From assembly GCA_964580215.1 (NCBI GenBank), contig CAZOJT010000013.1, positions 1,268 to 65,267 of the forward strand: a DNA stretch of 64,000 nucleotides, given 5' to 3'. Source of the stretch: an uncultured Ignavibacteria bacterium (GTDB taxonomy: Bacteria > Zixibacteria > MSB-5A5 > SM1-73). The stretch's first letter is position 1. Every line of letters begins with the position of its first letter. The translations under genes and the position numbers were made by a program. Under the pieces are notes generated by a model. That model saw nothing but the letters and a program-made list of their open reading frames with translations, did not search any database and was not told where the DNA came from. Positions 4,175-56,312 of the stretch are shown one piece after another.

Positions 4175-4656
4175 TCCCAACTAACTCTGTTGGGGCGAGG
4201 GTTGAACCCCCGTTCCCGCTTCCCGTTGGTGTTCTTCACCAACGGGAAACGAACGCCGGTGAAAAATACCCTCTCGGAGCAGGAGAGCCAGAGATTCTTC
4301 CTCCCACCTCTGGCGGGACTCAGAATGACACGAGCACTGTCACCCTGAACGAAGTGAAGGGTCTCACGCTCCATAGTCGAGGGTGCCCTCCCAGACGGGT
4401 CTCCGTCACCCTCGACCAAAAACTATGTGGCAGGGTAAGGGCTTGTCCTGAAGGCGCAGGCCGAAGGATACCCTGACACAACACCATCCAGTTACTTCGC
4501 ACACTCCTTAAAAGAGGTCTCTGAAAAGGTGCAGAAATCGGGCGGGCTAAGAGCCCGCCCTACGCGCTCGGGTATTGAATAACAATGATTTAGCCCGCGT
4601 AGGCGGGGCTCCCAGCCCCGCAAGAACGACTTTTTCAGAAATCTCTAAAAGAAATC

Positions 4657-4685
4657 TTGACAAGCTACGTAGGTCTTTCTATTTT
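4657..4685 (+). promoter_or_regulatory. Putative sigma70 promoter (TTGACA-17 nt-TATTTT) upstream of the BNR/T9SS gene
   Basis: TTGACA lies at 4657-4662, followed by a 17-nt spacer and TATTTT at 4680-4685. It is about 100 bp upstream of the ATG at 4788. Confidence 0.35.
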
Positions 4686-4787
4686 TAAAGTTGACGTATA
4701 AAAACGACAGGCGAACATCTATGGTTCATTTTATACCATCTCACAAGAATCATAATCTTTTTAAAACCTTTACTGAAAGGCGGGGAT

Positions 4788-6305: not shown

Positions 6306-6530
6306 TCATTTCGTGCTCCCGGGGGATGTTACCCCAGACGAGCCCCCATACGGGTGGGGGTCTCCGTCATCCCACAGCATCAGGTCGGAGATCCCGCCCT
6401 TCGATTTACTCAGGGTGGTGACAGTTCGACTTCGCTCACTGTCCCTGAGCAAGGTCGAAGGGAGCGAAGTCGAACCACCAAAGGTATGAACCGTATGGTC
6501 CATACCAAAGGCGGGGGTGGAATAAACCCC

Positions 6531-6615
6531 ATTCTGATACCTAACCCATAGTCTCTCTTACCACAAAGAGCAAATTCGCAATAACCTTAATGGTGAAAAG
6601 GATAGCTCCACCGTT
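6531..6615. repeat. ~80-bp direct repeat, copy 1 (left flank of the ABC cassette)
   Basis: The sequence tagtctctcttaccacaaAgagcaaAttc...aatggtgaaaaggatagctcc is nearly identical to the copy at 11085-11180. Confidence 0.7.
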
Positions 6616-11084: not shown

Positions 11085-11180
11085 TGAGCGTCGAACCATT
11101 CTCATACCTTCCCTGTAGTCTCTCTTACCACAAGGAGCAAGTTCACTATGACTCCAATGGTGAAAAGGATAGCTCCCTTA
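11085..11180. repeat. ~80-bp direct repeat, copy 2 (right flank of the ABC cassette)
   Basis: The sequence tagtctctcttaccacaaGgagcaaGttc...aatggtgaaaaggatagctcc matches the copy at 6531-6615. Confidence 0.7.
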
Positions 11181-11269: not shown

Positions 11270-11470
11270 TAAATGTCTTTGACTTTATTGAACTCTTGAA
11301 CTCTTGAACTTTTAAACTTTTGAACTCTTATTTTGAACCTTGGATTCATCAAAATTCATCAAAATTAATATCTAAGGCGCTAAACTTGAATCACTTGGAG
11401 GAAAAGTGAGAAAAAAATTAAAAATACCACCAGATGCACCAGAAGCACCAGTTCCACCAGCCAAGCATCT
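11270..11470. repeat. Short tandem repeats ((t)tgaactc(t) x5, ttcatcaaaa x2, caccag x5)
   Basis: Direct reading of the sequence between the right repeat and the 3' end of secA. Confidence 0.6.
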
Positions 11471-11637
11471 TCGCTTGCGTTGAATCCCTTCAGGATGAAT
11501 CTCCACCCTCGACCAAAAATATGTGGCTCGAATTTGAATCCTGTGGACAAATTCGGATTTCTATTTTGTTTGTTTGGGTTTTAGCGGTGGACGGCAGACT
11601 GTGGACTGTGGACGTTTTTCAATCCGTTGACCACTTT

Positions 11638-14600
11638 TCAAGCCCCACAACATTTTTTGTATTTCTTCCCACTGCCGCAGGGGCAGGGGTCGTTTCGTCC
11701 AACCTTTTTGCCCACCCTCACCGGCTTGGGCTTGCCGGGAGCCACCTGTTCTGCTGGTTGAGTCTCGGCATATCCCATTCCCACTGTGGACTGGTGGACC
11801 GTACTCATCTGTCTTTCTGGTTCCCTTCCCTTGGGTCTTTCTTTCTCCTCCACCTGCAGTTTGAAGATAAGCTCCAGAGTCTCCTCGTCAATTCCCTCAA
11901 GCATTTCGGTAAATAAGGCAAATGCCTCCTTTTTGTATTCAATCAGCGGGTCTCTCTGGCCATAAGCTCTCAGGCCGATGCCGGTTTTAAGCTGATCTAA
12001 ATCATAAAGATGCTCCTTCCACTTTTCATCTATAGTCCGGAGCATGGCATATCTTTCTAACTGCCGCATCAACTCCTCACCCAGCATCTTCTCCTTATGG
12101 TCATAGATCTGAAGAGCCATCTTATAAAGGTTTTGCTTCAAATCCCCCTGTTTCAGCTCGTTTAAATCCTTCTGGTCGAACTTAACGTCCACCAGAAAGG
12201 TTCTTAAGAGGTCCTGTTTTAGACCGGTCAGGTCCCATGCCTCGGGATAGGTTTTGTCATCGGTATGAGCTTCCACCTTGAACTCGATCACGGTTTTGAT
12301 TAGATCCAGGATTTCTTCTCTTAGGTCTGCACCCTCTAAGACTGCCAGTCGGCGGTCATAGATAACCTCTCTTTGCTGGTTCATCACGTCATCATATTCC
12401 AAAAGGTGTTTTCTTATGGAAAAGTTCTGTGCCTCCACCCTCTTTTGTGCTCTCTCTATCGCCTTGGTGACCATGGAATGTCTGATCACCTCTCCATCCT
12501 GCACGCCTAACCTATCCATTATAGAAGCGATTCTGTCCGAACCGAAAAGCCGCATCAGATTATCTTCTAAGGAGAGGAAAAATTTGGAGGAACCCGGATC
12601 GCCCTGCCTTCCGCTTCTTCCTCTGAGCTGTCTGTCGATCCTTCGAGCTTCATGCCTTTCTGTCCCTATGATGCGAAGCCCGCAGGGAACATCCTCATTG
12701 CAACCCAACTCCTCCAGATAGGGACAACCATCTTCCCTGTTTGGGGTAACCAACCTGCAGTGGAGATGTTTGACCACATCCGGACCCAATTTGATATCTG
12801 TTCCCCGTCCTGCCATGTTGGTAGCGATGGTGACCGTGCCCGCCTGGCCCGCCCGGGACACGATCTCTGCCTCCTGTTGATGGTATTTGGCATTCAGAAC
12901 GGAATGCTTTATCCCTTTTCTTTTTAGCATGCGGGAGAGGGTCTCAGAAGCTTCCACAGACACGGTCCCCACCAGGGCTGGTCTGCCAACTTCATGACAG
13001 CGGACGATCTCATCAATTATGGCGTTATATTTTTCCCTTCTGGTTCGATAGATCATGTCATCGTAATCAATTCTTCTCACCGGCTCGTTAGTGGGGATAG
13101 CCACCACGTCCACCTTGTAGATCTCCCATAATTCTGATGCTTCCGTCACTGCGGTTCCGGTCATCCCAGCCAGCTTGTGGTAAAGTCTGAAGAAATTCTG
13201 CAGGGTGATGGTGGCAAAGGTTTGCGTCTCTCCCTCAACTTTAACTTTTTCCTTTGCCTCTATGGCTTGGTGCAATCCATCGCTGTATCTTCTGCCCGGC
13301 ATAAGCCTGCCGGTGAACTCGTCCACGATCATCACCTTATCATCCTGCACCACATACTCCACATCTTTTTCAAACAAAGAAAATGCTTTCAAAAGCTGGT
13401 TTATGGAATGGTTCTTTTCACTGCGTTCCGCATGAAGCTGATATAACTTCTCCTTTCTTTTTAATTTCTCCTCAGAGGAGAGAGAATCGTCTGAATCGAT
13501 TTGGTGTATCCCCTCGGTGATATCCGGAAGGATAAAAAGCACTTGATCCTCCGGTGAGAGAAGCGACCTTCCCATCTCATTCAAATTGATGCTGTTCTCC
13601 CTTTCATCGATGGAGAAATACAAAAGGTCATCTATCTCATACAGTTTTTTGTCCCGCATGAAATCTAACTCCACCCGGGTGATCAGCTTTTTGACCCCTG
13701 GCTCCTTTTGTAGCTTTATCAATCTTTTGTTCTTGGGAGCACCCCTCTGGGCGGTCAGAAGCTTTATCCCCGCCTCGTATTCCTTTCCACCTTTCAACAA
13801 TTCCTCTCCATCAGCTACCAGCTTATTTACCAAAGTGGATTGTTTGCGAAACAACTGCTCCACCAAGGGTCTCATCTCCATGTAGCTTTGGGTAACGTTG
13901 GAGCTTACCGGACCGGAGATGATCAGAGGAGTGCGGGCTTCGTCAATTAAAACCGAGTCTACTTCGTCCACTATGGAGTAATTATATCCTCGCTGAACCC
14001 TGTCCTCAGCCCGGATAGCCATGTTATCTCTCAGGTAGTCAAAGCCGAACTCATTGTTGGTCCCATAAGTGATGTCATAGTTATACTGAACTTTCCTCTG
14101 TTCATTATCCATCTCATTTTGTATACAACCCACAGTCAGACCCAAGAACTTATATATCTCTCCCATCCACTCGGTATCTCTTCGAGCCAGATAATCGTTC
14201 ACCGTCACCAGATGGCACCCTTTGCCTGTTAGAGCATTCAGATAAAGTGGCATGGTGGCGACCAAGGTTTTCCCTTCGCCGGTTGCCATCTCTGTAATCT
14301 TGCCCTGATGCAAGACCACTGCGCCAATGAGCTGAACGTTATAGGGAACCATATCCCACTCTATCTGGATGTCGCACACCTCCCATTTTTTGCCCAAAAG
14401 CCTTCGGCAGGTCTGTTTGACCACAGCAAAAGCCTCCGGGAGGATTTCATCTAAAGTCTCCTGCTCCACCTTTTTTATTTCACTCTGGATTTCCTTCATC
14501 TGTTGCAAGAGCTCTTCCCTTCGAGATCTAACCTCTGCCCTCTCCTCCTCGGAAAGTCCGTGAGTTTTTATGCCGGCAAACTCTTCTTTTAATGCATCCA

Positions 14601-14793
14601 GTTGCCTTTCAAACTCTCCGCTTCTCTCCTTGATCCTCTGCTTGAATTCTTCGGTTTTCCCCTTCAGTTCCTCATCTGAGAGACTTTCATATTGCTCATG
14701 GAATTTGTTAATTTCCTCCACGATCGGGCGGATTTTCTTTACGTCTCTATCGTGTTTGGAACCGAATATCCTGGTAACTAAATTGGGACTCAT
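11638..14793 (-). CDS. secA: Preprotein translocase ATPase SecA
   Basis: 1051 aa with the DEAD-like motor domains. The N-terminus is MSPNLVTRIFGSKHDRDVKK and the C-terminus carries the Zn-binding CPCGSGKKYKKCCG. Confidence 0.95.
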   Translation of the reverse strand: MSPNLVTRIFGSKHDRDVKKIRPIVEEINKFHEQYESLSDEELKGKTEEFKQRIKERSGEFERQLDALKEEFAGIKTHGLSEEERAEVRSRREELLQQMKEIQSEIKKVEQETLDEILPEAFAVVKQTCRRLLGKKWEVCDIQIEWDMVPYNVQLIGAVVLHQGKITEMATGEGKTLVATMPLYLNALTGKGCHLVTVNDYLARRDTEWMGEIYKFLGLTVGCIQNEMDNEQRKVQYNYDITYGTNNEFGFDYLRDNMAIRAEDRVQRGYNYSIVDEVDSVLIDEARTPLIISGPVSSNVTQSYMEMRPLVEQLFRKQSTLVNKLVADGEELLKGGKEYEAGIKLLTAQRGAPKNKRLIKLQKEPGVKKLITRVELDFMRDKKLYEIDDLLYFSIDERENSINLNEMGRSLLSPEDQVLFILPDITEGIHQIDSDDSLSSEEKLKRKEKLYQLHAERSEKNHSINQLLKAFSLFEKDVEYVVQDDKVMIVDEFTGRLMPGRRYSDGLHQAIEAKEKVKVEGETQTFATITLQNFFRLYHKLAGMTGTAVTEASELWEIYKVDVVAIPTNEPVRRIDYDDMIYRTRREKYNAIIDEIVRCHEVGRPALVGTVSVEASETLSRMLKRKGIKHSVLNAKYHQQEAEIVSRAGQAGTVTIATNMAGRGTDIKLGPDVVKHLHCRLVTPNREDGCPYLEELGCNEDVPCGLRIIGTERHEARRIDRQLRGRSGRQGDPGSSKFFLSLEDNLMRLFGSDRIASIMDRLGVQDGEVIRHSMVTKAIERAQKRVEAQNFSIRKHLLEYDDVMNQQREVIYDRRLAVLEGADLREEILDLIKTVIEFKVEAHTDDKTYPEAWDLTGLKQDLLRTFLVDVKFDQKDLNELKQGDLKQNLYKMALQIYDHKEKMLGEELMRQLERYAMLRTIDEKWKEHLYDLDQLKTGIGLRAYGQRDPLIEYKKEAFALFTEMLEGIDEETLELIFKLQVEEKERPKGREPERQMSTVHQSTVGMGYAETQPAEQVAPGKPKPVRVGKKVGRNDPCPCGSGKKYKKCCGA

Positions 14794-15624: not shown

Positions 15625-15996
15625 TTGTATTATTCTATTGGCATTGCAGATTGGCAGGGAAAATCAAGGGCGCTTTTGCATGAAGAAAAAACTAAAGTGT
15701 TTTTTGCCTTGTCTAAAAAGAGAGGTGCTCTAAAGGTTTTTTTACTTACTAATAGGAGCAGGAATCAGTTCACATATTATTATTCGTATGAATGCTTCGC
15801 ATTGATTTTTTCTCCCCCACCTGTTTTGGGCTTGACTTGAAATGCGTATGCATTCATACGAATCCCCCTTTAGTAAAGGGGGATTTAGGGGGATTTTCCA
15901 AGTTTCAAATCCCCCCTTCCCCCATTTCTTTAGGGGGGATGTAAACAATTATATGCTTTCCTTAATATGAGCAGACTGCTCAAAAGCCTAAGAGGC

Positions 15997-17119: not shown

Positions 17120-17520
17120 CGATTAACTCCATTGGATAACAAACATAGCACGGCAGAAAGACTTTATGCCTTCTCGTTTTTTTTGGGACACCACCGGGGT
17201 ACTTCTCATATCTAAATTTTTGGTCCTCCTCCACTTTAGTTGCTGGAATTCTTCATAACTAAAAGAAACCTTAAGGACTTAATTGAGTTGAGATTTGAAG
17301 ACCTCACCCCCTATCCCCTTCTCCCTTGCCTCCGGCGGGATTCTCAATCACCGCCGTTGGTGGGATCTTCGACATGAAATGGAGAGGGGGAACAAAGGGG
17401 GAGAGACAAAAGAAAGCCTGTGGTTTTTTTTGGTGCAAATAATATTCGTATGAATGCTTCGCATAAACTTGTGCATTAGCAACTCTCTTGGAGAAGACCC
17501 AAATTCCTAAGCCATTTTCT

Positions 17521-18456: not shown

Positions 18457-18876
18457 ACTCCTCTCTTTTTAAAGTACGAGGATTGTAAAATCTCAATGCC
18501 GGTGAGTGATATATCGGTGGTTCTGTTCATTTTGAGATCTCTGAAAAAGCCTTTGGATAACGGAAATTGGAGTGTCCTGCTTTAGCGGGACCAAGAAAAA
18601 CTCTTATGGATACGTATGCATTTAAGTTTAATTTGCACAAAGAGTTGAACTTTAAGCTTTTTTTACCTCCCCCCCTTTCCCTGACGGGTCTCCGTGTCCC
18701 CCCTCTCCCCCGCCTCCGGCGGGATCTTCGACATGAAATGGAGAGGGGGAGATAGGAGGTGAGGTCGAAACAAAAGAGTTTTTCAGAAGCACTCAATTGA
18801 AATTCCTTGACACCTGAAGGCAGTTGTAGTAAATTTGCTTTTCATTCGTATATGATATGTTTAAATAGAAGGTGAC

Positions 18877-24315: not shown

Positions 24316-24356
24316 ATGCGTATGCTCGTATGAGTGCATACGCACATTCATACGAA
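24316..24356. repeat. Nested palindromic repeat (family gcgtatgc-tcgtatgagt-gcatacgc…cattcatacgaa)
   Basis: The sequence atgcgtatgctcgtatgagtgcatacgcacattcatacgaa has at least 12 related copies in the window. Confidence 0.8.
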
Positions 24357-24470
24357 AATTCCCGTCTCTATGGGAGGATTATCTTCTCACCCATAGGGCA
24401 GGGCATTCAGCCCTGCCACAAGATTCTCGGTCGTTCATTAATTACGGGTTAGGCTAAAACCTAACACTCC

Positions 24471-27310: not shown

Positions 27311-27470
27311 ATTTTGTCTTTGTAGTTGCCCAATTCATTGGGCTTTATGAGGCTCGATCCTTCGACAGGCTCAGGATGCCATAAATCGAGCGACTACAGT
27401 TTCGTAGTTGCCCGATTCATTGGGCTTTATGTAGCTCGATAAATCGAGCAACTACAATTTTTATGCGCTA
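27311..27470. repeat. Two tandem copies of the repeat family gtagttgcc-(c/t)gattcattgggctttatg…gcaactaca
   Basis: Related copies occur at 37990-38105 and 44795-44865. They have inverted termini attgtagttgc…gcaactacaat. Confidence 0.7.
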
Positions 27471-29629: not shown

Positions 29630-30094
29630 TTGTTAAACTTAAAGAGACCATTTATGAGATCAAAAAAGCATTGGCGGAATAAAGGCTTTACTTTGATCGA
29701 GCTGATGATCGTGGTAGTCATCATCGCCATCCTGGCGGCGATGGCTATTCCCCGTTTCATGCGTACTTCGGTGAAAACCAAGCAGACCGAGGCAAGACTA
29801 ATCTTGAAGCAGATTTATACCATGGAAAGAGCTTACCGGCAGGAAAAGGACAGCTACTACCCGGGTGACGGAAGCACCATTGTTGCTCAACCTGGAGGAG
29901 CCTTCGCTGCTTTATATGTGGAGATCATGACTCCGGCTTATTATAGTTACTCAATTTCCGGAGACGCCTCATCCTTTTCAGCCACCGCTGGGTCCAAAAG
30001 CGCCACCGGGCTGGATGGTGACCCTACTTTAGATGTCTGGACCATAGACCAAACCGGTAATCTGACCTGCGTCACTGATGACTCTGAAGACTGA
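29630..30094 (+). CDS. Type IV pilin / pseudopilin (prepilin-type N-terminal cleavage/methylation domain), copy 1
   Basis: Contains …NKGFTLIELMIVVVIIAILAAMAIPRF, which is the G/FTLIE class III signal plus a hydrophobic helix. The true start is probably MRSKKHWRNKG at ~29654. Confidence 0.75.
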   Translation: MLNLKRPFMRSKKHWRNKGFTLIELMIVVVIIAILAAMAIPRFMRTSVKTKQTEARLILKQIYTMERAYRQEKDSYYPGDGSTIVAQPGGAFAALYVEIMTPAYYSYSISGDASSFSATAGSKSATGLDGDPTLDVWTIDQTGNLTCVTDDSED

Positions 30095-30339: not shown

Positions 30340-30771
30340 ATGTTGAGCAAATTTCACAGAAGTCAGAAGGGTTTCACCTTGATCGAGTTGATGATCGTGG
30401 TGGTCATCATCGGAATTTTGGCCGCACTGGCCATCCCACGATTCATGCGAGCGACCACCAAGTCCAAGCAGTCTGAGGCAAAGCAGGTCTTGAAGCAGAT
30501 CTACGCCATGGAGAGAGCTTATCGTCAGGAGTATAATGCCTACTGGGGTAACGGTATCAAAGCCTCAGCCGTCGCCGCCCAACAGGATAACTTCGGCCGC
30601 ATCGGTGTGGACATCATGTCCACCGCTCGTTACACTTACACCATCGTTGCGGCTGCGAACACCTTTACCGTAACCGCCACCTCAGGCATCCTGGACGATG
30701 ATGCCAAGGTGGATACCTGGACCATCAACGACGCAGGTCTTCTGTCCTGCACCAGCGATGACGCGCTCTAA
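30340..30771 (+). CDS. Type IV pilin (PilA-like), copy 2
   Basis: MLSKFHRSQKGFTLIELMIVVVIIGILAALAIPRF is the prepilin leader plus N-methyl-Phe helix. A variable C-terminal domain ends with a Cys pair (…CTSDDAL). Confidence 0.75.
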   Translation: MLSKFHRSQKGFTLIELMIVVVIIGILAALAIPRFMRATTKSKQSEAKQVLKQIYAMERAYRQEYNAYWGNGIKASAVAAQQDNFGRIGVDIMSTARYTYTIVAAANTFTVTATSGILDDDAKVDTWTINDAGLLSCTSDDAL

Positions 30772-30796
30772 GGGTTTAACTTCTTGTCTGACTAAA

Positions 30797-30833
30797 GGGG
30801 ACTCAAGGGTTTGAGTCCCCTTTTTTGTTTTTT
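30797..30833 (+). terminator. Rho-independent terminator after the pilin genes
   Basis: ggggactcaagggtttgagtcccc forms a stem, followed by tttttt gtttttt. Confidence 0.75.
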
Positions 30834-31063
30834 AGTAGGTCGGGTTTTCCGCCAAAGGCGAATCCACCTCCGGTGGAAAAGCAATTGTAGGTCCGAACCC
30901 CCCCGCCAACGGCGGGGGTTTCGGACAACAAAAGATTAATAAACAACCGAGAAAATCCGCAGGGATGAACCCTGCGCTACGCAAGCTAATGCACTCAATT
31001 CTCTCGCGTAGCCAAGCCTTTATGGCTTGGATGAACAATTTTTTCGCCGGAACAGCAAAGAGA

Positions 31064-31100
31064 TGTCGGATAGTCCCGCCTTTGGCGGGACATATCCGAC
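31064..31100. repeat. Extended hairpin containing the cccgcc-ttt-ggcggg core (widespread repeat family)
   Basis: tcggatagtcccgcctttggcgggacatatccga. The same core recurs at 6652-6668, 53121-53139, 38045-38063, 17327-17345, 18707-18722, 33212-33230, 50241-50258, 55445-55462, 55563-55580, 44083-44101 and 30893-30911. Confidence 0.8.
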
Positions 31101-31110
31101 CTACTAACCT

Positions 31111-33126: not shown

Positions 33127-33304
33127 AAAGAGGGCTTTTTTACCTCGCCCCCTTTGTTCCCCTTCAGGGTGAATCCTTCAGGGTGAACCCCTCTCCATTC
33201 CAGGTCGAAGATCCCGCCAGAGGCGGGGGAGAGAGGGATAGGGGGAAAGATTTTCCTCTCAAGAACTTTAGGCACTAAAGCGAAGAAAACCTAAAGAGAA
33301 AAAA

Positions 33305-34384
33305 ATGAGGCAGAAAAAAGACATAGACATATCTGTGGTTGTGCCCATGTTCAATGAACAGGAGAATGTCAAAAACACTCTGGACCGGCTTACCCAGGCT
33401 TTGGACTCCATCCCCAAAACATGGGAGATAATTGTGGTGGATGATGGCTCAACTGATCAGACCAAAAAGTTGGTGAAGGATTACTCCCATTTCAATCGCT
33501 GGGTCAAGCTGATCTCTTATCCTATCAACCAGGGAAGAGGGAAAGCGCTGAGAGTTGGATTTGCCCATGCTCAGGGTAAGATAATATGCACCACTGATGC
33601 TGATCTAAGCTATGATGAAAGATACATTCTGCAGATGATTGAGATTCTGGATAAAAATCCGGATGTGGATCTGGTGGTGGGCTCACCCTATGCTCATGGA
33701 GGGGAAGCCGAGGGAGTTTCTCTCTTCAGATTGCTTTTAAGCAAATGGGGGAATAAGATTTTAGGATTTGCCATGAAAGGTGGGCTTTCCACTGTGACCG
33801 GAGTTTTAAGGGCATATCATAAAGAATGCATAAGCTCGCTGGAGTTGGAATCAGATGGTAAGGAGATACATCTGGAGATTCTGTCCAAAGCACTGTCCAT
33901 GGGCTACAAAGCCAAAGAACTGCCCGCCACCTTGAAAGCCAGAACCAAAGGGAAGTCTAAGTTTAAGTTTAAAGCCACCGCAGTATCGCATCTGATCTTT
34001 TCGTTTTTCGAAAAACCCATAATTCTATTTGGCGCCATCGGTCTTTTCATGCTCTTCTTAGGATTTGTTGGTGGAACTTACATTATATATCTTTGGCAGA
34101 AGGGAACTTTAAATCCCAACCGACCCCTGATGACTTTGATAGTGCTTTTGATCGTAGCTGGAATTCAGGTGCTCCTTTTTGGATTTTTGGGGACACAGAT
34201 AGTTCACTTAAGAAAAGAACTTTATAAAATACAAAGAGAAAACAAAACTTTGGAAAACAAAATAAACAATTTACCTGCAAAGATTGAAGTGGAGAAGAAA
34301 GAACCGGAGCGTGTATCTTCAAACAAGCCCAGACAATCTAAAAACTGTTCAGCCCAGCAGATGAATATATCTCCCAACAGATGA
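33305..34384 (+). CDS. GT2-family polyprenyl-phosphate glycosyltransferase (Dpm1/GtrB/ArnC-like) with a C-terminal TM anchor
   Basis: VVVPMFNEQENV, VVDDGSTD and DADL (DxD) motifs are present. Two C-terminal TM helices follow, as in GtrB/ArnC. Confidence 0.75.
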   Translation: MRQKKDIDISVVVPMFNEQENVKNTLDRLTQALDSIPKTWEIIVVDDGSTDQTKKLVKDYSHFNRWVKLISYPINQGRGKALRVGFAHAQGKIICTTDADLSYDERYILQMIEILDKNPDVDLVVGSPYAHGGEAEGVSLFRLLLSKWGNKILGFAMKGGLSTVTGVLRAYHKECISSLELESDGKEIHLEILSKALSMGYKAKELPATLKARTKGKSKFKFKATAVSHLIFSFFEKPIILFGAIGLFMLFLGFVGGTYIIYLWQKGTLNPNRPLMTLIVLLIVAGIQVLLFGFLGTQIVHLRKELYKIQRENKTLENKINNLPAKIEVEKKEPERVSSNKPRQSKNCSAQQMNISPNR

Positions 34385-34470
34385 AATAGATCAAAAGATA
34401 AGAAAATGCGTGTGCATCTTCGATCTGTTTAATCCTTTCATCTGTTGGGAATTCTTTAATCTGTTGGAAA
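34370..34470. repeat. Inverted-repeat element cccaacagatgaaa…tcatctgttggg (second copy at 52985-53045)
   Basis: Read directly from the sequence. Confidence 0.7.
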
Positions 34471-34488: not shown

Positions 34489-35682
34489 ATGTCAACCTCC
34501 CAAAAAATCTGCCTGATCACCAATCGTTATCCTACGCATCCTGACGATGTGGCTTCACCCTTTGTGCATGACTTTCATTTGGGATTGAAGGAAAGAGGGC
34601 TGGATGTTTCCGCCTTCACCCCCTATTATCCGAATCTGGACCCTGCGGATCAAACACAAAAGACAGATTGGACAGAGGATATAGTTAGATTTCACTGGTG
34701 GGGGGGAGAAAAGGTGGTGGGCTCTTTAAATTTCTTTAATCCCAAAGAGTTTTTTCAGCTTTACTCTTTTCTCAAAAATGGGAAATCTCAGCTTTTAGAA
34801 CATCTCAAAAAAACCAATCCCGATTTTTGCTTGGCTTTATGGGCACTTCCCTCAGGATGGTTTGCTTATCAGGCAAAGAAAGAACTTGACATCCCTTATT
34901 CCGTTTGGTGTCTCGGCTCGGATATTTACGTCTGGGCAAAAAAGCCGATTTTGCGAAAAATCATAAGAAAAGTCCTGCAGGAGGCAGACTATCTTTTTGC
35001 AGATGGATTCGATTTGAAAGAAAAGACCGAAAAGCTATCGGGCAAAAGGTGTCTTTTTCTTCCCAGCATGAGAAAGCTTCCACAAGCATTTAACAAAAAA
35101 GACCAACTTGATCCTGCAAAATTCAATTTCTTGTATGTGGGGCGATGGGATAAAAAGAAAGGTTTAGATGATTTGATTAAAGCATTTGGTCTGGTCAAAA
35201 ACAAGCTGCCCTCTGTCAATCTTCATATTCTTGGATGGGGTAGCTTTGAGAAAAAGATGAAGAAATTGATAGAAGAACTCAAATTAGAAGAGCAGATCAA
35301 AATAGTAGGAAGAGTTTCTACCACCATGGTGGCTAACTATATCAAGCAATCAGACTGCGTGACCATCCCCTCTAAAAGTGACAGCATTCCTTTAGTCTTC
35401 TCCGAGGCGCTTCAGATGGGGACTCCTCTTATTGTCACCGATGTGGGAGACATGGGTTCTCTAGTAAAAAGATTTAAGCTGGGCAAAGTAGTTCCCCCAG
35501 GAGACACACAAAAGTTAGCCCAAGCTATGATCGAGTTTGCCTGCGAAAAAAAGGATTACTCTAAGAATATGCCAGAAGCCTTAAAATTACTTAACATTGA
35601 AAAAGCAGTGAATGATTATCTAAAGACCGTTGGCTTTGAAGAGCACACCCAAGCCTCAACCATCCGGACGTTAAGCCACTGA
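34489..35682 (+). CDS. GT4-family (GT-B, group 1) glycosyltransferase
   Basis: A C-terminal EX7E-type motif region (FSEALQMGTPLIVTDVG) and a Rossmann-like GT-B arrangement are present. Confidence 0.7.
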   Translation: MSTSQKICLITNRYPTHPDDVASPFVHDFHLGLKERGLDVSAFTPYYPNLDPADQTQKTDWTEDIVRFHWWGGEKVVGSLNFFNPKEFFQLYSFLKNGKSQLLEHLKKTNPDFCLALWALPSGWFAYQAKKELDIPYSVWCLGSDIYVWAKKPILRKIIRKVLQEADYLFADGFDLKEKTEKLSGKRCLFLPSMRKLPQAFNKKDQLDPAKFNFLYVGRWDKKKGLDDLIKAFGLVKNKLPSVNLHILGWGSFEKKMKKLIEELKLEEQIKIVGRVSTTMVANYIKQSDCVTIPSKSDSIPLVFSEALQMGTPLIVTDVGDMGSLVKRFKLGKVVPPGDTQKLAQAMIEFACEKKDYSKNMPEALKLLNIEKAVNDYLKTVGFEEHTQASTIRTLSH

Positions 35683-35869
35683 GACTTTCTGTGCCCGCCA
35701 GGTCCCCTGACCTGGCGGAAGCTGCCTGTCGGGTCGGGGACCCGACAGGCACAGGGAGAATATGCCAGAAGCCTTAAAATTACTCAATATTGAAAAGGCA
35801 GTGGATGATTATCTAAAGACCGTTGGCTTTAAAGAGCACACCCAAGCCCAAACCTGCAGTATCTTAAAC
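35673..35869 (+). repeat. Structured ~85-bp insert with two GC-rich hairpins and ctgtgcc/ggcacag termini, followed by a ~95-bp diverged duplicate of the GT4 3' end
   Basis: 35759-35853 is about 93% identical to 35566-35660, and the duplicate retains a stop codon in the same relative position. The insert contains the hairpins cgccaggtcccctgacctggcg and gcctgtcgggtcggggacccgacaggc. Confidence 0.7.
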
Positions 35870-35994
35870 CGATAAGATTTACCTGCCCGTCATGCTCTTC
35901 GAAAAATGAGAAATTTTTGGTGTCAATTTGACTTGCTTTTAGAAGGGGATTTGATTATCTATTATTTCAAATTCAAAGTTAGGAGAAACGAAAT

Positions 35995-36984: not shown

Positions 36985-37212
36985 CCAAATTTGGAGTGTG
37001 TGGATAAATTCTGTGTAGGGACAGGGCTTGTCCCTGTCCTGGCTCCAATAAGGACAGCCACAAGGGTTCATCCTGAAGGGTTGTCCCTACGATTGCCATG
37101 CGATGTTGAACTAAGATCGTCTATAGGGGCGGGAATTTATCCCGCCCCAAGATCTGGATTTTTTAGCAGCCCAAAAAGATTTTGGCTACAACTATCAGAG
37201 GTAATCTAAACT

Positions 37213-37923: not shown

Positions 37924-38126
37924 AAAAATAACAAATTTGACTGTATCGCAGTCCTATTAAAACGCTAACGAAAACATATCGAGCATGAAGACAAGCTCTA
38001 AGCTCCTCTGAGAATGTAGTTGCTCGATTTATCGGGCCCAATCACCGCCTTTGTCCCGCCTCCGGCGGGATAAAAGCGGTATGAATTGGGCAACTACAAT
38101 TTCTTACCAAAGATCAAAGATAAAAA

Positions 38127-41319: not shown

Positions 41320-41396
41320 AGCATATTCAGACAAAATCTACACCGCGTAGCGGAGCCTTCATGGCTCCGCATCCAGCTTTTTAAAATGGTGAAAAA

Positions 41397-42137: not shown

Positions 42138-42520
42138 TTTGCCCAGAATTAGTAAACTCGTTTAACGTTGGCGAAGCTTGTATCGAAGCTCGAAAATCGA
42201 GGCTGGAGAAATGCGGATTAAAGAAGGATTTTTTCAAACATCGAGCTTCAATTGACCACAGGGTGAACGAGAACTCCAATTGTGTCATTCTGAACGGAGC
42301 CCTTCGGCACTTGTCACCCTGAGCGAAGCCTTGCCTAAGGCGGGCGAAGCGAAGGGTCTGGATTGCCTCAGGGTAAACTCCGCGGAGTGAAGAATCTTAG
42401 TTTTATGCGGGTTGGGAAGCGAGATTCTTCCCCACATGGGTCAGAATGACAATTCTCAGTCATCCTGCCCAGATTCGATACCAACCTCGAAAACGATAAC
42501 CGAGAAACAAAGCAATTTCG

Positions 42521-43542: not shown

Positions 43543-45150
43543 ATGGCATATCGACATGGTGATAGAAATCAAATGCAACTGCTTCCACCAAACATAGAAG
43601 AATACGTAACTCCGGATGATTCTGTTCGGGCGTATAGTGCCTTTGTGGATTCGCTTTCTCTGGCTGAGTTGGGCATCCTTTGGGATGAACATAAAGTTGG
43701 CAACTCCGAATATAATCCTAAAGCCATGATCAAGCTTTTGGTATATGGCTACTCCTATGGTTTACGCAGTTCTCGGAAATTGGAAATGGCGACTTATCAT
43801 AACCTCTCTTTTATCTGGTCCTATGGATCCAAATTCGGACTTATGGGTGGTCTGATTGAAGGCAATACGCTTTTTGTGGATGGGAGTAAGATAAGGGCGA
43901 ATGCCTCCATTGGTAATACCTGGACACCAGATAGATGTGAACGCTATCTTAAGGAGGTGGATCAGCATATAGAATCCATTCTTTCTGAGTGCGACACTAT
44001 GGATGAACAAGAACAGGATCATTCCTCTCTGGTTAAGCTTTCAGAAGAGCTGAAAGATAAAGAACGTCTTAAATCCAGTCCCGCCTCTGGCGGGATTGAA
44101 AGAACTCCAAGAACAAGAAAGGGAATCAATAAACACCACCGATCCGGATTGTGTTAAGGTCAAAGGGCGTCAAGGCATTCATGCGGGTTATAATGGGCAG
44201 ATCGTGGTGGATGAAAAGCATGGGCTGATAGTGCACAGTGACGTGGTGAATGACGGAGACCCGTCTGGGAAAGTAATGATGTTCATCAGTTTGCCCATCA
44301 GACTTGTAGTGAGCGTAGCGAACCTATTGAACAGGCTAATCAAACCCTGGAACATAAATGTACCAGCGCCTGTGCGGATGCGGGTTATTCTGACATCCAA
44401 GAGTTAAAAAAGATCGATGACCAACATGCTCGTATGAGTGCATACGCATCACCGTTATCGTTCCTTCGCAAAAACAAGCTCATGATAGACCAGTAAAACC
44501 AAATGACAAAGAACAATTTCTTTATGATGAACCGAATGATCGTTATATTTGTCCGCGAGGACATTCCTTGAGTTATACTTTCTTAGATAAGCACAGGAAT
44601 CATAAAGTGTATCAGATTACAGATGCGTATGCTCGTATGAGTGCATACGCACATTCATACGAATAAATCTTTGTGTTTGGAGTGCCAGCATTTTGGTCTT
44701 TGCACCAAAGCTAAATATGGTGGACGAATAAGGCGTCTGATTCATGAGGACATTAAATTAAAACTAGAGCTCTGTAACATAAATTTATTCGCTATTGTAG
44801 TTGCCTGATTTATCAGGCATAGTGACGACAGTGCTCAATAAATTGAGCAACTACAATATCCTGAATTTATGTTACAGCCCACTAGAGCATCAATATAATA
44901 AAGAGTCATCACAAGCAATTTATAAACTAAGAAAAGAAAAGGTGGAACTCGAAGAGTCATACGACTTCCTTTTGGACATGCGTATGCACTCATACGAGCA
45001 TCAAACGAAATTTAGGAGTGACCTCCTTTCTGCTTCGAGGATTGGAAGGAGTTAAAGCAGAAATGTCGCTATTAGCCAGTTGCTTTGATATCACTCGCCT
45101 GATCAACATTGTTGGAGTTCCATTGCTTGTGGCAAAGCTTATGAGTTAAT
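43543..45150 (+). mobile_element. Degenerate IS1182/IS5-superfamily insertion sequence (transposase pseudogene with frameshifts and repeat insertions)
   Basis: The DUF772 N-terminal domain is present (QMQLLPPNIEEYVTPDDSVRAYSAFVDSL). DDE-region pieces appear in other frames (TDPDCVKVKGRQGIHAGYNGQIVVDEKHGLIV, CADAGYSDIQEL). A zinc-finger region and a C-terminal RGLEGVKAEMSLLASCFDITRL follow. Palindromic repeats are inserted at 44426-44449, 44625-44663 and 44978-45002. Confidence 0.6.
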
Positions 45151-46394: not shown

Positions 46395-46500
46395 TCTCCT
46401 TTTTGTTAATTTATAGATTTTTTTCGGGCTGGGATGAATTCCCAGCCCTATGGGATTGAATGTCTACCTCATAGTCGGAGGAATTTATCCTCCGACATAA
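46395..46500. repeat. REP-like hairpins flanking the RAYT (ggctgggatgaattcccagccc; gtcggaggaatttatcctccgac)
   Basis: A matching hairpin ggctgggatgaattcccagccc lies at 47075-47105 on the other side of the transposase. Hairpins with a gaatttatc loop also occur at 46695-46715, 46760-46785 and 37115-37140. Confidence 0.7.
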
Positions 46501-47058
46501 CCCTCAAGATCAGTCTCACACTTCCCTGTTGCTGAAGAATATTTGTAATTCTCCGGTTTATCTGCTAATTTTGCCCTAACCGGGTTGTCGTGAATATAAT
46601 TTAGTCGTTGAACAAACTCCTTCTTGTTGCGAACAACATGATCGTAGAAGCTTGCCTGCCAGACCTTCGGTTTGGGCAGGGATAAATTCCCTGCCCAAAC
46701 TATGATTCTTAGATTCGCGGGACGAGGACAAATCCTCTGTCCTGTGGTTCTCCGGCTCATAGTCGGGGGAATTTATCCCCCGACTAAGTTGATTATATCT
46801 TCGAGCGAAACGACCTTTGATGTGACGCATCACATCGGAGATGGAATTTCTCTTATCCGGCACCAACATTAAATGAATATGATTAGGCATTACCACAAAA
46901 GCGAGAAGTCTAAATCTTAGCTTTTTCCTAACCTCGAAGATGGTTTGAATCAAAAGATCAGCCGCTTTCCCTTCTGAGAAAATTTTAGTGTTACGGTGCG
47001 TTTTGCTCGTGACAAAATGACAATAGTTCTCAAGGTTGAAACGAGCTACTTTACTCAT
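46485..47058 (-). pseudogene. REP-associated tyrosine transposase (RAYT / IS200-like Y1 HuH), interrupted by a ~130-bp hairpin insertion
   Basis: The N-terminal ORF carries the HuH motif (VMPNHIHLML) and …GRFARRYNQL. The C-terminal part continues in another frame with WQASFYDHVVRN…YIHDNPVRAKL (RAYT signature). Between them lie two gaatttatc-loop hairpins at 46665-46790. Confidence 0.65.
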
Positions 47059-47164
47059 AGTTAAATTCTAAGTCTTATGGCTGGGATGAATTCCCAGCCC
47101 TATGTATTGAATGGATATGTTCACCACTATATGGTTAAGAAATGTTCATTGCGTTGGACTTAGA

Positions 47165-48322: not shown

Positions 48323-48432
48323 AATGACTCCTTTGGTTTTATCCCCCCTTCTCCACGCCCACTCCACCGTCCGCCGACCGCCGCTAAACCAGTTCTTGCG
48401 GCGGACTGTCGACTGTGGACCGTGGGCGCTTT

Positions 48433-49821: not shown

Positions 49822-50286
49822 ATAAATTTCAATTCCAAACGAAAGTCGTTCGTTTCTTCAAAATTATGCTTCAGATACTTTTGACTGCCAAGCCATGAAG
49901 GCTTGGCTACGCAAAAATCAGCAATCAAATGCTACACGTTTATTCGTCTATCAGCCAAATGAAGGTGGCACATAATCTATCTTGATACAAACTGAAGCAC
50001 TCGTAGAAAAACCCAAACCTGAGTGCACTAGCCTGCTGGTGTGGTTTTCTTCTTGCGAAAGCAAGCTTTTGCACTCCGAAAAACTCTTTTTCAACAGTCC
50101 CTGAAGGTTGCGGCTACCTTTTTCTGTATTCCTCAATAAGAGCAACTTGGTAGCCGCTCCGCTCTCGGCGGAGCGCTTTTGCTTCTCTTACCTCACCCCC
50201 TGTCCTACGGATCTTCGATCTCCTTCTCCATTTCATGTTGAAAATCCCGCCGGAGGCGGGGGAGAGAGGACAAGGGGGGAGAGGTT

Positions 50287-52630: not shown

Positions 52631-52826
52631 ATATTAATACGAATGCATTTGCATATGCTCGTCCCGCAAAGTGCGGAACGCACATTCATACGAATCGAAG
52701 ATGCATACGCATATTTCTGATACGAAACTGCCCCCTCTCCCTATCCCTCTCCCCCGTGGAGAGAGGGGAAGGGTGAGGGGAAATCAAATAGAATGTAACA
52801 AACTCGTATGAGTGCATACGCATTGT
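52631..52826. repeat. Cluster of dispersed palindromic repeats (catacgaa / gcatacgc family, ccctctccc…gggagaggg family)
   Basis: Read directly from the sequence. Several repeat families co-occur in the 52.6-53.3 kb spacer. Confidence 0.7.
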
Positions 52827-53265
52827 CAACTTATTTGCTACGATCCTAAATGATGAATCTTGGGTTCTAAACCGTCATGTCATTGCGAACGAACACAGTG
52901 TGCGTGGCAATCTCTCTGTTTTCAAATGCACTTGTGTTTGTGTCAGGACCTCAGTAATCCTGACACCTTCTAAAAGATGCCCAACAGATGAAACAGATTA
53001 AGCAGATGATCTTTTTATCTGTTTAATCTGTTGGGAATTTTTGTATTGCGTCAGGAGTAGAGCTCCTGACGCAACTATTCAAATACTGTTTCATATTCCT
53101 TATATCCAAGAGATTGCTTCGTCCCACCTTTGGCGGGACTCGCAACGACAAGCATGGTTGTGTTTTCCCGATTGAACCTAAATGCTGGCGGGCGTCCATA
53201 AGGACGCCCACCAGTTTGTCGTAACGTGTTTGTGCGAACTACTGCACCTTGAGGTCGGAAAGAAG

Positions 53266-55098: not shown

Positions 55099-56312
55099 TT
55101 AGCCTTTTGCCTTGATAGAAGATGTTGAGGCGACCATCCAGACATTCATGTACCTCCACCTTGGCCTTGCAGTAGCTTGGGCGGCTTGTATGAGTGCATA
55201 CGCATATTCATTGGGCAGGATCTGAAAAACCTTTCCATTGTAACTTATGGTATTATCCCCAGAAACAGTTCTTTCTTCTTTTAAGCAGAAGATGTCCTTT
55301 AACTTCAACCCCTTAGGTAAGGGTCTATAGGCAGAATCAGGCTCTTTGGCAGAACGTGAAAACATCCGATTGTGCTTTGGAATAAATTGTTCTTTTAGAT
55401 AGCGATTGGCTTCCTCTAAGCTAGAGATATTATGGAGTCTGAGCTCCGAACCCCGCCAAAGGCGGGGGAACACTCCAAACTTTCTCTCAATCCTTCCCTT
55501 GACCTGCGGAGAATAAGCATAGATCATCCTTACTCCTAATTCCTCTAAAGCCCTGGCAAACTGAGTGGTCCCGCCATAGGCGGGATAAGTTAATACTCCA
55601 TACTCTGGTAACGGGTGGTCTTAAAGTTAGAACCACGATCCACATACACACTCAAGGGAATCCCTCTTTTCCGAACAATATCCCTAAATACTCCCATGTT
55701 CTGTTTTATCCCATCAGTTAACACAAATCCTATGGACTCAATTTCGAGCTTGGCTCCCGCTACCTTGCCGGTACTATCATCTACACCTCCAATCAGATAA
55801 AGCCTGGGACCTCTCCCTTCTAACCAATCATGATCGGAGGTGTCAAATTGAACCATCTGACCCTCCCTCGCAGAAGGTTCTCTCCACCGCCTATGCTTAG
55901 GATATCTCCTCTTTTTGACATAAGACTCTTTCCCCAATAAAATCTGCCTCACCGATTCCCTCGAAACCTTTGCGAAGCTCGTATGAGTGCATACGCACAT
56001 TCATACGAATATCCCTTCCTCCTGATTCAAATACTCCGTCATGTGAGTCAGGTTGAAACCTCTATATTTACTCCTATAAAAATGGTCTATCTTATCCCTG
56101 ATCTTCTCCGTAAGCCAACGCGGAGCTTTCTTACCTTTACTTTTATGGATTATCCCTCCCATTCCCTCCTTCTCCACCCGCGCCTTTATCCGATATACCT
56201 GCCGCTCGCTTAATCCTAATATCTCTCCAGCCTCTTTAATCCTAAGATACCCACCTTCTACCTCCGATATTATTTTATACCTCCCCGCCTCTTGCATAGT
56301 CAGGTTTAACAC
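55099..56312 (-). mobile_element. IS481/retroviral-integrase-type (rve DDE) transposase gene split into three ORFs by repeat insertions
   Basis: An N-terminal HTH ORF, a DDE core (QFDTSDHDW…) and a C-terminal SPQVKGRIERKFG are present. The palindromic repeat ctcgtatgagtgcatacgcacattcatacgaa sits at the HTH/core junction (55974-56012). A cccgccataggcggg hairpin lies at the core/C-terminus junction (55563-55580). Another repeat is at 55178-55205. Confidence 0.55.

Follow-up and report, generated by a model that had tools for sequence, protein, structure and literature searches.

REPs (repetitive extragenic palindromes) rank among the commonest repeats in bacteria, and one account still describes their spread as poorly understood (PMC8266576). 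Here we describe a 64,000-nt stretch of DNA (the window: GCA_964580215.1, contig CAZOJT010000013.1, positions 1,268 to 65,267 of the forward strand) from an uncultured sediment bacterium known from metagenomic sequence. Its spacers are rich in short palindromes, and it carries a disrupted gene for a REP-associated tyrosine transposase (RAYT) between two housekeeping genes, sucC and sucD. We think that the spacers probably hold a mixed, largely mobile population of REP-type miniature palindromes, which has accumulated where selection tolerates it. Such tolerant DNA would comprise the spacers, dead insertion sequences (ISs) and a permissive loop of the transposase gene. A first-pass annotation of the window had listed ten families of palindromic repeats (families 1 to 10 below). 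These collapse to footed REPs (class A), untagged 17–26-nt hairpin units (class B), long palindromes, one classical miniature inverted-repeat transposable element (MITE) and short tandem repeats.

The GTAG-tagged REP superfamily, with its doublets known as bacterial interspersed mosaic elements (BIMEs) or REPINs (REP doublets forming hairpins), has been described in detail (Di Nocera et al. 2013, PMC3733652; Bertels & Rainey 2011, PMC3116915). Bertels & Rainey treat doublets, not singlets, as the mobile unit (PMC3116915). Like GTAG REPs, the repeats discussed here include 20–40-nt palindromes with 6–13-bp stems and an unpaired GTAG-like tag at one end, they fall into sub-families that differ by complementary stem changes, and they occur both as singlets and as inverted dimers. 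The likeness probably extends to their location (mostly intergenic in the DNA sampled, with several families per genome and occasional intragenic copies) and to the stop codons that their TAG or loop bases provide. The differences are a Zixibacteria-like uncultured host, a tag that is often ATAG, and extreme stem diversity: almost no two copies agree, whereas the TTYA loop stays constant. Furthermore, both the GTAG and the CGTC tag are missing from families 1, 2 and 4, which supply the window's most abundant units.

REPs that lie in frame within the transposase gene are given as a unique hallmark of TnpA_REP subclass 2.4, for which "double-foot" REPs and the motifs NH[IFV]H, WQ and YIxNNP are also described (Quentin et al. 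2018, PMC6006769). This subclass corresponds to Bertels group 4, which is reported to have a low copy number of flanking REPs (Bertels et al. 2017, PMC5581495). The RAYT studied here resembles subclass 2.4 in its HuH (histidine–hydrophobic–histidine), WQ and Y motifs, its length of 175–232 aa reached through variable inserts, its long and double-foot REPs, and its rare flanking REP sequence. It departs from the descriptions we found in those two papers in having a stop codon in a REP loop, in the inactivation of the window copy by a palindrome-extending 4-nt insertion, and in its fixed sucC–sucD position across lineages, which is not stated in what we found there on Bertels group 4. The E. coli TnpA_REP–REP complex (4ER8; Messing et al. 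2012, PMC3479197) is the nearest solved relative and a mechanistic model. Together with the IS200/IS605 elements IS608 and ISDra2, it provides a scheme of single-strand hairpin recognition with a tyrosine nucleophile and no target duplication. However, E. coli REPs are long and bulged and their stems are conserved, and IS200/IS605 elements are autonomous, multi-copy and often accompanied by tnpB, none of which we saw here.

Small non-autonomous palindromic or MITE-like repeats that land in genes, such as Rickettsia palindromic elements (RPE) and Neisseria Correia elements, offer a second comparison. As with those, some units here are tolerated in frame in proteins, and one element (44770–44880) has inverted repeats and a target duplication. 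Unlike MITEs, RPE and Correia elements, classes A and B have no terminal inverted repeats or target duplications and are 5–10 times shorter.

Class A and the RAYT match the published descriptions, as far as these are given in PMC3733652 and PMC6006769; the features new here are the host lineage, the fixed sucC–sucD position, stems of extreme diversity and the way in which the gene was inactivated. Class-B units resemble REPs and lie outside the GTAG- and CGTC-tagged superfamilies. The mobility of its singlets and their targeting of loops would be the most novel aspect of this system, an argument made purely by comparison. The setting is a candidate phylum without cultured members, in which a RAYT is fixed between two housekeeping genes with its own putative substrates embedded in frame. 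Dead ISs and filled/empty sites preserve the insertion junctions of 20-nt hairpin units in nature with unusual clarity, and this record could guide biochemistry on whether a RAYT recognises foot and loop, or the stem. On the practical side, the repeats break metagenome assemblies and yield spurious small open reading frames (ORFs) and frameshifts, which annotators should expect.

Hairpin excess in the spacers

We counted perfect hairpins with a stem of at least 7 bp and a loop of 3–12 nt. The 11.1 kb of intergenic DNA in the window contains 46 of these, against 7.1 expected and a maximum of 16 in first-order Markov (Markov-1) simulations; coding DNA has no excess (42 vs 37.4 expected). The spacers also have sequence in common with each other: exact 14-mers found in another spacer occur in 17 of 32 spacers, compared with 3.8 for size-matched, non-overlapping coding chunks, and they cover 1026 nt in spacers vs 62 nt in the chunks. 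Folding z-scores of the elements are mostly −3 to −8, with stems of 6–13 bp.

All ten motifs listed by the first-pass annotation are present where it had placed them, either exactly or a few bases off. Its estimate of about 12 copies of family 1 is borne out by 12 matches to CCCGCC-N3-GGCGGG with at most one mismatch, vs 0.06 expected from 100 dinucleotide shuffles, and the family-2 core TCGTATGARTGCATACGC (a CGTATG hairpin) has 8 matches in the window vs 0.00 expected. The annotation had staked its claim on the motifs being commoner than base composition predicts, and they are over-represented in 835 kb of other contigs. Family 1 occurs there 96 times (0.2 expected), the motif ACCTCNCCCCC 52 times (1.8 expected), the motif GTAGGTCGG 25 times (1.4 expected) and the family-4 core 80 times (10 expected), all relative to Markov-1 sequence. 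This sample comprises the contigs of 115 loci among the family-2-core matches listed, i.e., it was chosen for carrying family 2, and it over-represents one hot spot, equivalent to window positions 15760–15960. Copy numbers and RAYT gene numbers throughout are counts in the window and sampled contigs.

The dispersed REP/MITE-like palindromes are therefore real, though the statement that they occupy nearly every spacer went too far: by our reading, about 20 of the 26 spacers of at least 100 nt contain an element, and several spacers (14794, 25698, 29453, 30095 and 63344) have none. The division into ten independent families does not stand. Families 5, 7 and 9 are one architecture. Family 1 is a hairpin module: families 3, 4, 5 and 2, and long GTAG REPs as well, have it nested at their apex. 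The copy of family 3 cited at 6405 exists in degenerate, inverted form, and family 10, listed as a palindrome, is a tandem heptad repeat.

Related RAYT-bearing genomes have a similar density of intergenic hairpins (3.5–7.8 per kb). Their orthologous spacers hold other sets of elements and are mostly shorter (e.g., 195–410 nt vs 653 nt in the window).

Footed REPs and the RAYT gene

Class A consists of oriented modules: a [G/A]TAG foot, a variable GC-rich stem of 6–13 bp, a TTYA loop and the complementary stem. It takes in families 5, 7 and 9 and many singletons, and its members are arranged as singlets, inverted doublets or double-foot doublets. Members away from the RAYT locus include the following.

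24393–24417, plus strand: dispersed REP, ATAG GGCAGGGC attca GCCCTGCC.
27319–27458, plus strand: two tandem family-5 double-foot doublets, GTAGTTGC + hairpin ... hairpin + GCAACTAC.
30846–31101: cluster of GTAG-footed REPs (z = −7.4).
37015–37039, plus strand: REP, GTAG GGACAGGG cttgt CCCTGTCC.
37123–37148, plus strand: REP, ATAG GGGCGGGA attta TCCCGCCCC.
38013–38100, plus strand: family-5 double-foot doublet with a family-1 hairpin (38053–38071) nested between its arms (z = −7.0).
41346–41370, plus strand: REP of family-7 type, GTAG CGGAGCC ttcat GGCTCCGC.
49887–49911, minus strand: family-7 REP, GTAG CCAAGCC ttcat GGCTTGGC.

The cluster at 30846–31101 includes GTAGGTCGG.. and GTAGGTCCGAACCCCCCCGCC-aac-GGCGGGGGTTTCGGAC, a CGCAGGG-atgaa-CCCTGCG+CTAC unit, family 7 (GTAG+CCAAGCC-tttat-GGCTTGG) and a long bulged REP, GTCGGATAGTCCCGCC-ttt-GGCGGGACATATCCGAC+CTAC. 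Inverted class-A dimers (head-to-head or tail-to-tail, HH/TT, as in REPINs and BIMEs) lie at 4540–4621, 27319–27458, 38013–38100, 44794–44857 and 46426–46496.

The [G/A]TAG foot is found on 25 of 73 intergenic hairpins and 8 of 108 coding hairpins in the window, and on 126 of 831 unique hairpins in 899 kb. Read from the foot, the loops are ATTCA, ATTTA, TTCAT, TTTAT, TTCA and TTTA, and the stems vary from copy to copy. In a set of ~1.03 Mb (the window plus related contigs), the apex of footed hairpins was TTYA in 106 cases and its reverse complement (TRAA) in 7, and the coupling of foot and loop relative to unfooted hairpins had an odds ratio of 9.6 (p = 8e-24). A fixed-length pattern, RTAG-N8-WTTYAW, gave 6 matches vs 2.7 expected, this pattern being too rigid for variable stems. 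The first-pass annotation had proposed conserved loops with co-varying stems, and this describes the footed class well. Class A has the short stem-loop and unpaired GTAG-like tag that define the GTAG REP superfamily, and families 1, 2 and 4 on their own lack the tag.

The RAYT locus contains five features:

46485–47058, minus strand: RAYT (TnpA_REP, subclass 2.4-like) pseudogene between sucC and sucD.
47079–47104, minus strand: REP-b CATAGGGCTGGGAATTCATCCCAGCC, upstream of RAYT, 26/26 identical in contigs L004, L006 and L008.
46760–46786, plus strand: REP-a in the RAYT reading frame; the minus strand encodes SRGINSPDY.
46670–46700, minus strand: REP-b in the RAYT reading frame, carrying a GTTT insertion.
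46426–46496: doublet between RAYT and sucD, made up of REP-a (46472–46496, which holds the RAYT stop) and REP-b (46427–46452).

An ORF at 46576–47058 (minus strand) matches Pfam Y1_Tnp, and the gene runs on in another frame to a stop at 46485. The HuH motif NHIH belongs to the N-terminal half, and VWQ..YIHDNP to the C-terminal half, which is read in a different frame. When the two are joined, the best PDB match is E. coli TnpA_REP 4ER8 (E = 2.5e-13, ~30% identity), with IS200/IS605 TnpAs at ~1e-4 or weaker, and the NCBIfam model REP_Tyr_transpos NF047646 is matched over its whole profile at 120.6 bits (cut-off 80). The NCBIfam IS200 model gave 40 bits, below its cut-off of 55, and domain searches of the window proteins found no tnpB. 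An autonomous IS200/IS605 element is argued against by this sub-cut-off score, by the lack of tnpB and by a gene that is syntenic rather than dispersed. The orthologues have DHIH, WQ, and YIYNNP or YIYYNP, and the departures from subclass 2.4 motifs are small: D for N in the Y motif of the window copy and in the HuH motif of the orthologues.

The order sucC–RAYT–sucD is kept in seven further loci (eight with the window), two of them labelled Zixibacteria. In these seven, SucC and SucD are 87–97% identical to the window proteins and RAYT is 57–75% identical. The conserved position would fit long vertical retention of RAYT. Its closest relatives are in two metagenome-assembled genomes (MAGs) labelled Candidatus Zixiibacteriota/Zixibacteria and two others labelled "uncultured Ignavibacteria".

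Two class-A REPs lie inside the RAYT gene, between the HuH and Tyr motifs, and its TAA stop codon is within a REP loop. The flanking arrangement, REP-b upstream and a REP-a + REP-b doublet downstream, is found in the window and in L004–L013, and REP flanks, in-frame REPs and the REP-borne stop codon are common to all orthologous loci. The homologues are 175–232 aa long with at least two in-frame REP units, giving peptides such as SRGMNSPDY and HRAGNSSLP. Among orthologues, the stems show compensatory changes (GGGCAGGG/CCCTGCCC, GGGCGGGG/CCCCGCCC, GGGCCGGG/CCCGGCCC; also GTCGG/CCGAC vs GCCGG/CCGGC), and at one stem position A-T, G-C and C-G pairs all occur.

The 4-nt insertion in the internal REP-b of the window copy (GTTT) allows the left arm to pair with a downstream AAAC, so that the stem grows from 9 to 13 bp; it also shifts the reading frame. 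Two other assemblies, P0031 and P0037, have the same split ORFs. Such a stem extension is the signature of hairpin-templated (template-switch) mutation. The gene has been disrupted in a different way in Zixibacteria SM23_73_3 (L013, 6197–6230), which lacks the N-terminal half of RAYT; the deletion runs precisely from the upstream REP to the internal REP of that type, i.e., REP–REP recombination has destroyed the transposase gene.

We infer that this RAYT, a HuH/Tyr transposase of single-strand DNA of the subclass 2.4 type, acts or once acted on the dispersed class-A copies as its cognate substrates. If it works like E. coli TnpA_REP and IS608 TnpA, it would bind the folded hairpin on single-stranded DNA. 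Foot and loop, rather than stem sequence, would be the features it reads, because both are conserved while the stems vary freely. The tyrosine would then cleave at the foot, and the element would be rejoined elsewhere without a target duplication. Since the window RAYT copy is frameshifted, it probably no longer mobilises class A. The RAYT suggested by the first-pass annotation is thus a good candidate for class A, a RAYT being encoded in the window and both flanked and interrupted by class-A hairpins, and an unsupported one for families 1, 2 and 4.

Distant RAYT homologues (34–40% identity) with variable inserts in the same loop occur in L014–L018 and L035, which are Patescibacteria/Parcubacteria MAGs. 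Their inserts resemble translated palindromes (e.g., GGQGLNALPG), and in-frame REPs may extend to bacteria of the candidate phyla radiation.

Untagged units and the origin of the repeats

Class B comprises family 2 and part of family 1. Its ends are fixed (CT-CG...CG-CA) and its cores are interchangeable, being either CGTATG-AGTG-CATACG or the family-1 core TCCCGCC-N3-GGCGGGA; the commonest unit is the 20-mer CTCGTATGAGTGCATACGCA. Insertions are of exact units (20 nt is the commonest length), lack target duplications and lie mostly at purine/pyrimidine junctions. Strikingly often, the target is the loop or centre of an existing palindrome. Insertion of a unit into a palindrome builds the nested palindromes described in the first-pass annotation: nested family-2 forms are one unit inside the centre of another, and 25- and 26-nt units with class-B ends and a family-1 core are inserted in the loops of other hairpins.

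The family-2 core was found in at least 115 metagenome stretches, in at least 136 unique contexts. Among the matches listed, conservation ends sharply at C-TCGTATGAGTGCATACGC-A for the variant with an AGTG loop and at T-TCGTATGAATGCATACGC-AT for the variant with an AATG loop, and dozens of filled and empty sites form pairs with a length difference of exactly 20 nt. Among these, the pair L161 vs L187 (GTAGTTCATT-unit-TCCCCTC) is unambiguous and has no target duplication. The AATG variant has a junction ambiguity of 2–3 nt because it is always located at an AT.

Dead ISs are a second source of junctions:

43543–45148, plus strand: IS1182-family transposase pseudogene with at least seven small insertions.
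44254–44270, plus strand: 17-nt unit CGGAGACCCGTCTGGGA between the IS1182 gene's codons for VVNE and SNDV.
44429–44448, plus strand: 20-nt class-B unit CTCGTATGAGTGCATACGCA in the IS1182 gene, between DDQH and ITVI, no target duplication.
44625–44664, plus strand: 40-nt nested unit in the IS1182 gene, between QITD and KSLC (a 20-mer inverted in the centre of another).
44770–44880, plus strand: classical 111-nt MITE in the IS1182 gene, with 14-bp terminal inverted repeats CTGTAACATAAATT (z = −8.2).
44979–44998, minus strand: 20-nt class-B unit in the IS1182 gene, inverted, between FGH and IKR.
55099–56312, minus strand: IS3/IS481-like remnant (helix-turn-helix (HTH) and rve fragments).

The IS1182 insertions were mapped on an intact homologue that is 79% identical. 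A family-1 hairpin at 44078–44096 is not a clean insertion, as ~19 nt replace ~15 nt of the gene. The MITE has a 7-bp target duplication, ACTAGAG, at 44763–44769 and 44881–44887, and a family-5 REP doublet (44794–44857) at its centre. The IS3/IS481-like remnant carries family-2 units at 55185–55204 and 55978–55997 and a family-1 hairpin at 55452–55466. In L090 (900–2100), removing seven 20-mers from an IS4-like transposase restores its reading frames, one growing from 146 to 204 aa and the other from 88 to 173 aa. Three different dead ISs of the DDE (Asp-Asp-Glu) transposase type are riddled with mini-hairpins, at a density similar to that in spacers.

Other class-B features of the window are these:

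15784–15802: family-2 short form TCGTATGAATGCTTCGCAT.
15843–15862, minus strand: variant-A 20-mer, inverted relative to the same site in L090.
24318–24356, plus strand: nested family-2 unit (inner 20-mer 24325–24344), directly after a GtrA-like gene.
52640–52822: family-2 pieces, one with its apex replaced by a CCCGC..GCGG hairpin (~52655–52695), and a 20-mer at 52803–52822.

At one of these, the same 18–20-nt unit occupies the same site, between GAAAT and ATCCCCC, in opposite orientations (window 15843–15862 vs L090 876–895), which is either an in-place inversion or two independent insertions. This site belongs to a ~200-nt set of G5/C5-rich hairpins at 15760–15960 (AATCCCCCTTTAGTAAAGGGGGATT, GGGGGATTT..AAATCCCCC), a hot spot of 20-mer insertion that is also present in at least 15 metagenome contigs. 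The set matches nothing in Rfam and may represent a structured RNA or a leader that has been conserved.

A single-strand (HuH-like) mechanism, which we infer for class B as well, is suggested by insertions that lack target duplications and favour loops. A bolder proposal is that class B might be a distinct minimal class of mobile DNA: singlet 17–26-nt CT-hairpin-CA units with constant ends of 2–4 nt, swappable cores, loop targeting and recursive nesting, moved by an unrecognised enzyme or by the 2.4 RAYT, whose action would then extend beyond its GTAG substrates. Judging from the comparisons made here, we consider this rather unlikely, though worth stating. If true, natural filled/empty pairs would give nucleotide-resolution junctions for the movement of single REP-like units. 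The elements are further remodelled by REP–REP recombination and by template-switching during replication at hairpins, through stem extension and probably in-place inversion.

Several observations weigh against a mobile REP-type population. We found no class-B transposase in the window or in the 835 kb of contigs that carry family 2: a hidden Markov model (HMM) built from the RAYT alignment had no match even at E = 1 among all ORFs of the 115 loci, and all-against-all clustering of these ORFs gave no recurrent transposase-like family and no DDE family recurring beside the units. Class-B units are not significantly biased towards either orientation with respect to neighbouring genes, a bias that a strongly strand-specific mechanism might have produced. 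Filled/empty pairs alone cannot separate insertion from precise excision, and the direction of the differences is unpolarised. As for class A, it is doubtful that the frameshifted window RAYT is currently active. The RAYT loop motif with its closing pairs, GGAATTYATCC, is rare away from the locus (7 vs 2.6 expected in 835 kb), so the link from RAYT to the wider GTAG/TTYA population is one of shared architecture; this rarity agrees with the low flanking-repeat counts published for Bertels group 4. Finally, some hairpins are conserved at orthologous sites and may be functional or recruited rather than mobile. A hairpin just 3' of the aldehyde dehydrogenase gene (GGGCGTCC..GGACGCCC, 53190–53209) keeps its position in four genomes (L004 3985–4045, with equivalents in L006 and L008) and is probably functional, not mobile. 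A family-4-type palindrome follows the amino-acid kinase gene in three genomes (window 50184–50286; L004 7188–7282; L008 6781–6860), its sequence diverged and its palindrome kept.

An unlikely alternative is that the repeats are primarily functional RNA or DNA structures (terminators, 3' mRNA stabilisers, protein sites) kept by selection, their likeness reflecting convergent or constrained structure. It would account for the many elements that start right behind stop codons, for place and structure retained despite changed sequence after the aldehyde dehydrogenase and amino-acid kinase genes, and for the 26/26 identity across lineages of the REP upstream of RAYT, and such roles have been reported for REPs (PMC3733652). 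However, it does not explain identical 17- and 20-nt units inside transposase reading frames, the dozens of filled/empty polymorphisms among the matches listed, or the absence of orientation bias relative to transcription. The terminator role raised by the first-pass annotation fares badly in particular: a T-run follows only 4 of 46 intergenic hairpins, and a terminator scan (1–20 kb) gave 18 sites vs 22 expected, with no repeat unit among them. A genuine intrinsic terminator lies at 30794–30823. Individual repeat copies may nevertheless have been recruited secondarily to functional roles. Spread mainly without a dedicated transposase, through template-switching, slipped-strand events and gene conversion with the RAYT incidental, seems to us quite improbable. 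Much of the remodelling described above speaks for it: a 4-nt extension that turns an imperfect palindrome perfect, an 18–20-nt unit that has opposite orientations at one site in two genomes, stems that are perfectly complementary yet very diverse, apex modules exchanged between units with the same ends, and the REP–REP deletion in L013. But template switching remodels in place, leaving unexplained the same exact 20-mer in more than 130 unrelated contexts with sharp ends, the oriented foot–loop coupling, and the apparent long-term retention of a RAYT tied to these hairpins.

We give still less credence to ordinary MITEs, i.e., internally deleted ISs with terminal inverted repeats moved in trans by DDE transposases (IS1182, IS3, IS4). 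DDE ISs do occur in the window, and the element at 44770–44880 fits with its 14-bp terminal inverted repeats and 7-bp duplication. It is the sole exception to insertion without target duplication, as seen in the unambiguous L161/L187 pair and the codon-exact IS1182 insertions. The abundant 17–26-nt units are too short for two transposase-binding ends, and the DDE elements are themselves victims, full of units, with no DDE family recurring beside them. Chance, base composition or assembly artefact can be set aside almost entirely. The short length of some motifs is all that favours chance, which the shuffles and simulations contradict, and an artefact is hard to reconcile with three independent assemblies (contigs L001–L003) that are 100% identical to the window. 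Because of this identity, those contigs, which all end within repeat-bearing spacers, are uninformative on strain polymorphism.

Composite spacers, other repeats and gene context

The spacer at 4175–4787 is a mosaic of at least seven elements and illustrates how the classes combine:

4176–4195: hairpin CCCAAC..GTTGGG at the start of the spacer, immediately after the rluD stop.
4220–4248: hairpin with a 12-bp stem, TTCCCGTTGGTG-ttctt-CACCAACGGGAA.
4290–4333, minus strand: family-3 frame GTCATTCTGAG...GAAGAATC; a nested family-1 hairpin, TCCCGCC-AGA-GGTGGGA, occupies its apex.
4339–4364, plus strand: short family-3 unit GTCACCCTGAACGAAGTGAAGGGTCT, with a second copy at 42313–42359.
4376–4416, plus strand: hairpin with a 10-bp stem, GTCGAGGGTG...CACCCTCGAC.
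4540–4621: inverted GTAG REP doublet (REPIN/BIME-like; z = −5.0), laid out as GGGCGGGCT-aag-AGCCCGCCC+CTAC, a 38-nt spacer and GTAG+GCGGGGCT-ccc-AGCCCCGC.

The loop of the hairpin at 4376–4416 holds a 17-nt unit (4389–4405, minus strand) identical to the IS1182-gene insertion at 44254–44270, 40 kb away. A long hairpin of the GTCAGG type is also present in this spacer, and a promoter-like site for the next gene follows the elements.

The long palindromes are families 4 and 6 and the family-3 frames, and the short tandem repeats are family 10 and the TTGAACTC repeat.

18659–18768, plus strand: family-4 long palindrome, ACCTCCCCCCC..CCCCCTCTCC ... GGAGAGGGGG..GGAGGTGAGGT, with a family-1 hairpin and a GACGGGTCTCCGT unit nested in it.
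17304–17400, 33136–33250 and 50184–50286: further family-4 copies.
52976–53040, plus strand: family-6 long palindrome, CCCAACAGATGAAACAGAT...ATCTGTTGGG (z = −7.2).
11589–11613, plus strand: family-10 tandem heptad of the (G/A)GACTGT type, with a second copy at 48403–48427.

A second family-6 copy (34353–34470) overlaps the stop codon of the glycosyltransferase gene at 33305–34384; as this stop is inside the palindrome (34353–34386), the last codons of the gene are repeat-derived. Tandem oligonucleotide repeats comprise (TTGAACTY)n octamers at 11288–11328 and 58300–58324 and (GTCCACA)n-type heptads at 11589–11613 and 48403–48427. A repeat like these, TAGTTCGTGGTTCA, is found in L006 at ~7160, and none of them is palindromic.

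Two longer duplications adjoin hairpins. An 81-nt direct repeat, 84% identical between 6529–6609 and 11096–11176, brackets a four-gene ABC/FtsX/LolA-like operon; each copy adjoins a GTCAGG-type hairpin, and the repeat has no Rfam match. A GT4 glycosyltransferase gene has its final 124 nt, stop codon included, in two copies of 85% identity (35564–35687 and 35757–35880), with two strong hairpins (35695–35751) in between. The duplicate resembles a former 3' end that allele replacement displaced and left behind, or a hairpin-associated duplication.

Searches of the window with Rfam 15 covariance models gave 0 matches at gathering thresholds and, in E-value mode, nothing but chance-level miRNA-like matches to long hairpins; a tRNA/tmRNA search of the window found none. 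The genes are those of an ordinary chromosome and include ileS, lspA, rluD, secA, purF, sucCD and cca as well as pilin genes and a glycosylation cluster. The window also encodes a sorting domain for type IX secretion, which is compatible with the FCB (Fibrobacteres–Chlorobi–Bacteroidetes) group of phyla. In SecA (1051 aa, 11638–14793), the match to a 290-position DEAD-like domain profile is stretched over residues 7–556, implying a large insertion. The largest "direct repeat" in the window is unrelated to the hairpin families: it is a pair of paralogous genes with pilin-like N-terminal methylation motifs (29630–30094 and 30340–30771), which match over 164 nt at 76% identity.

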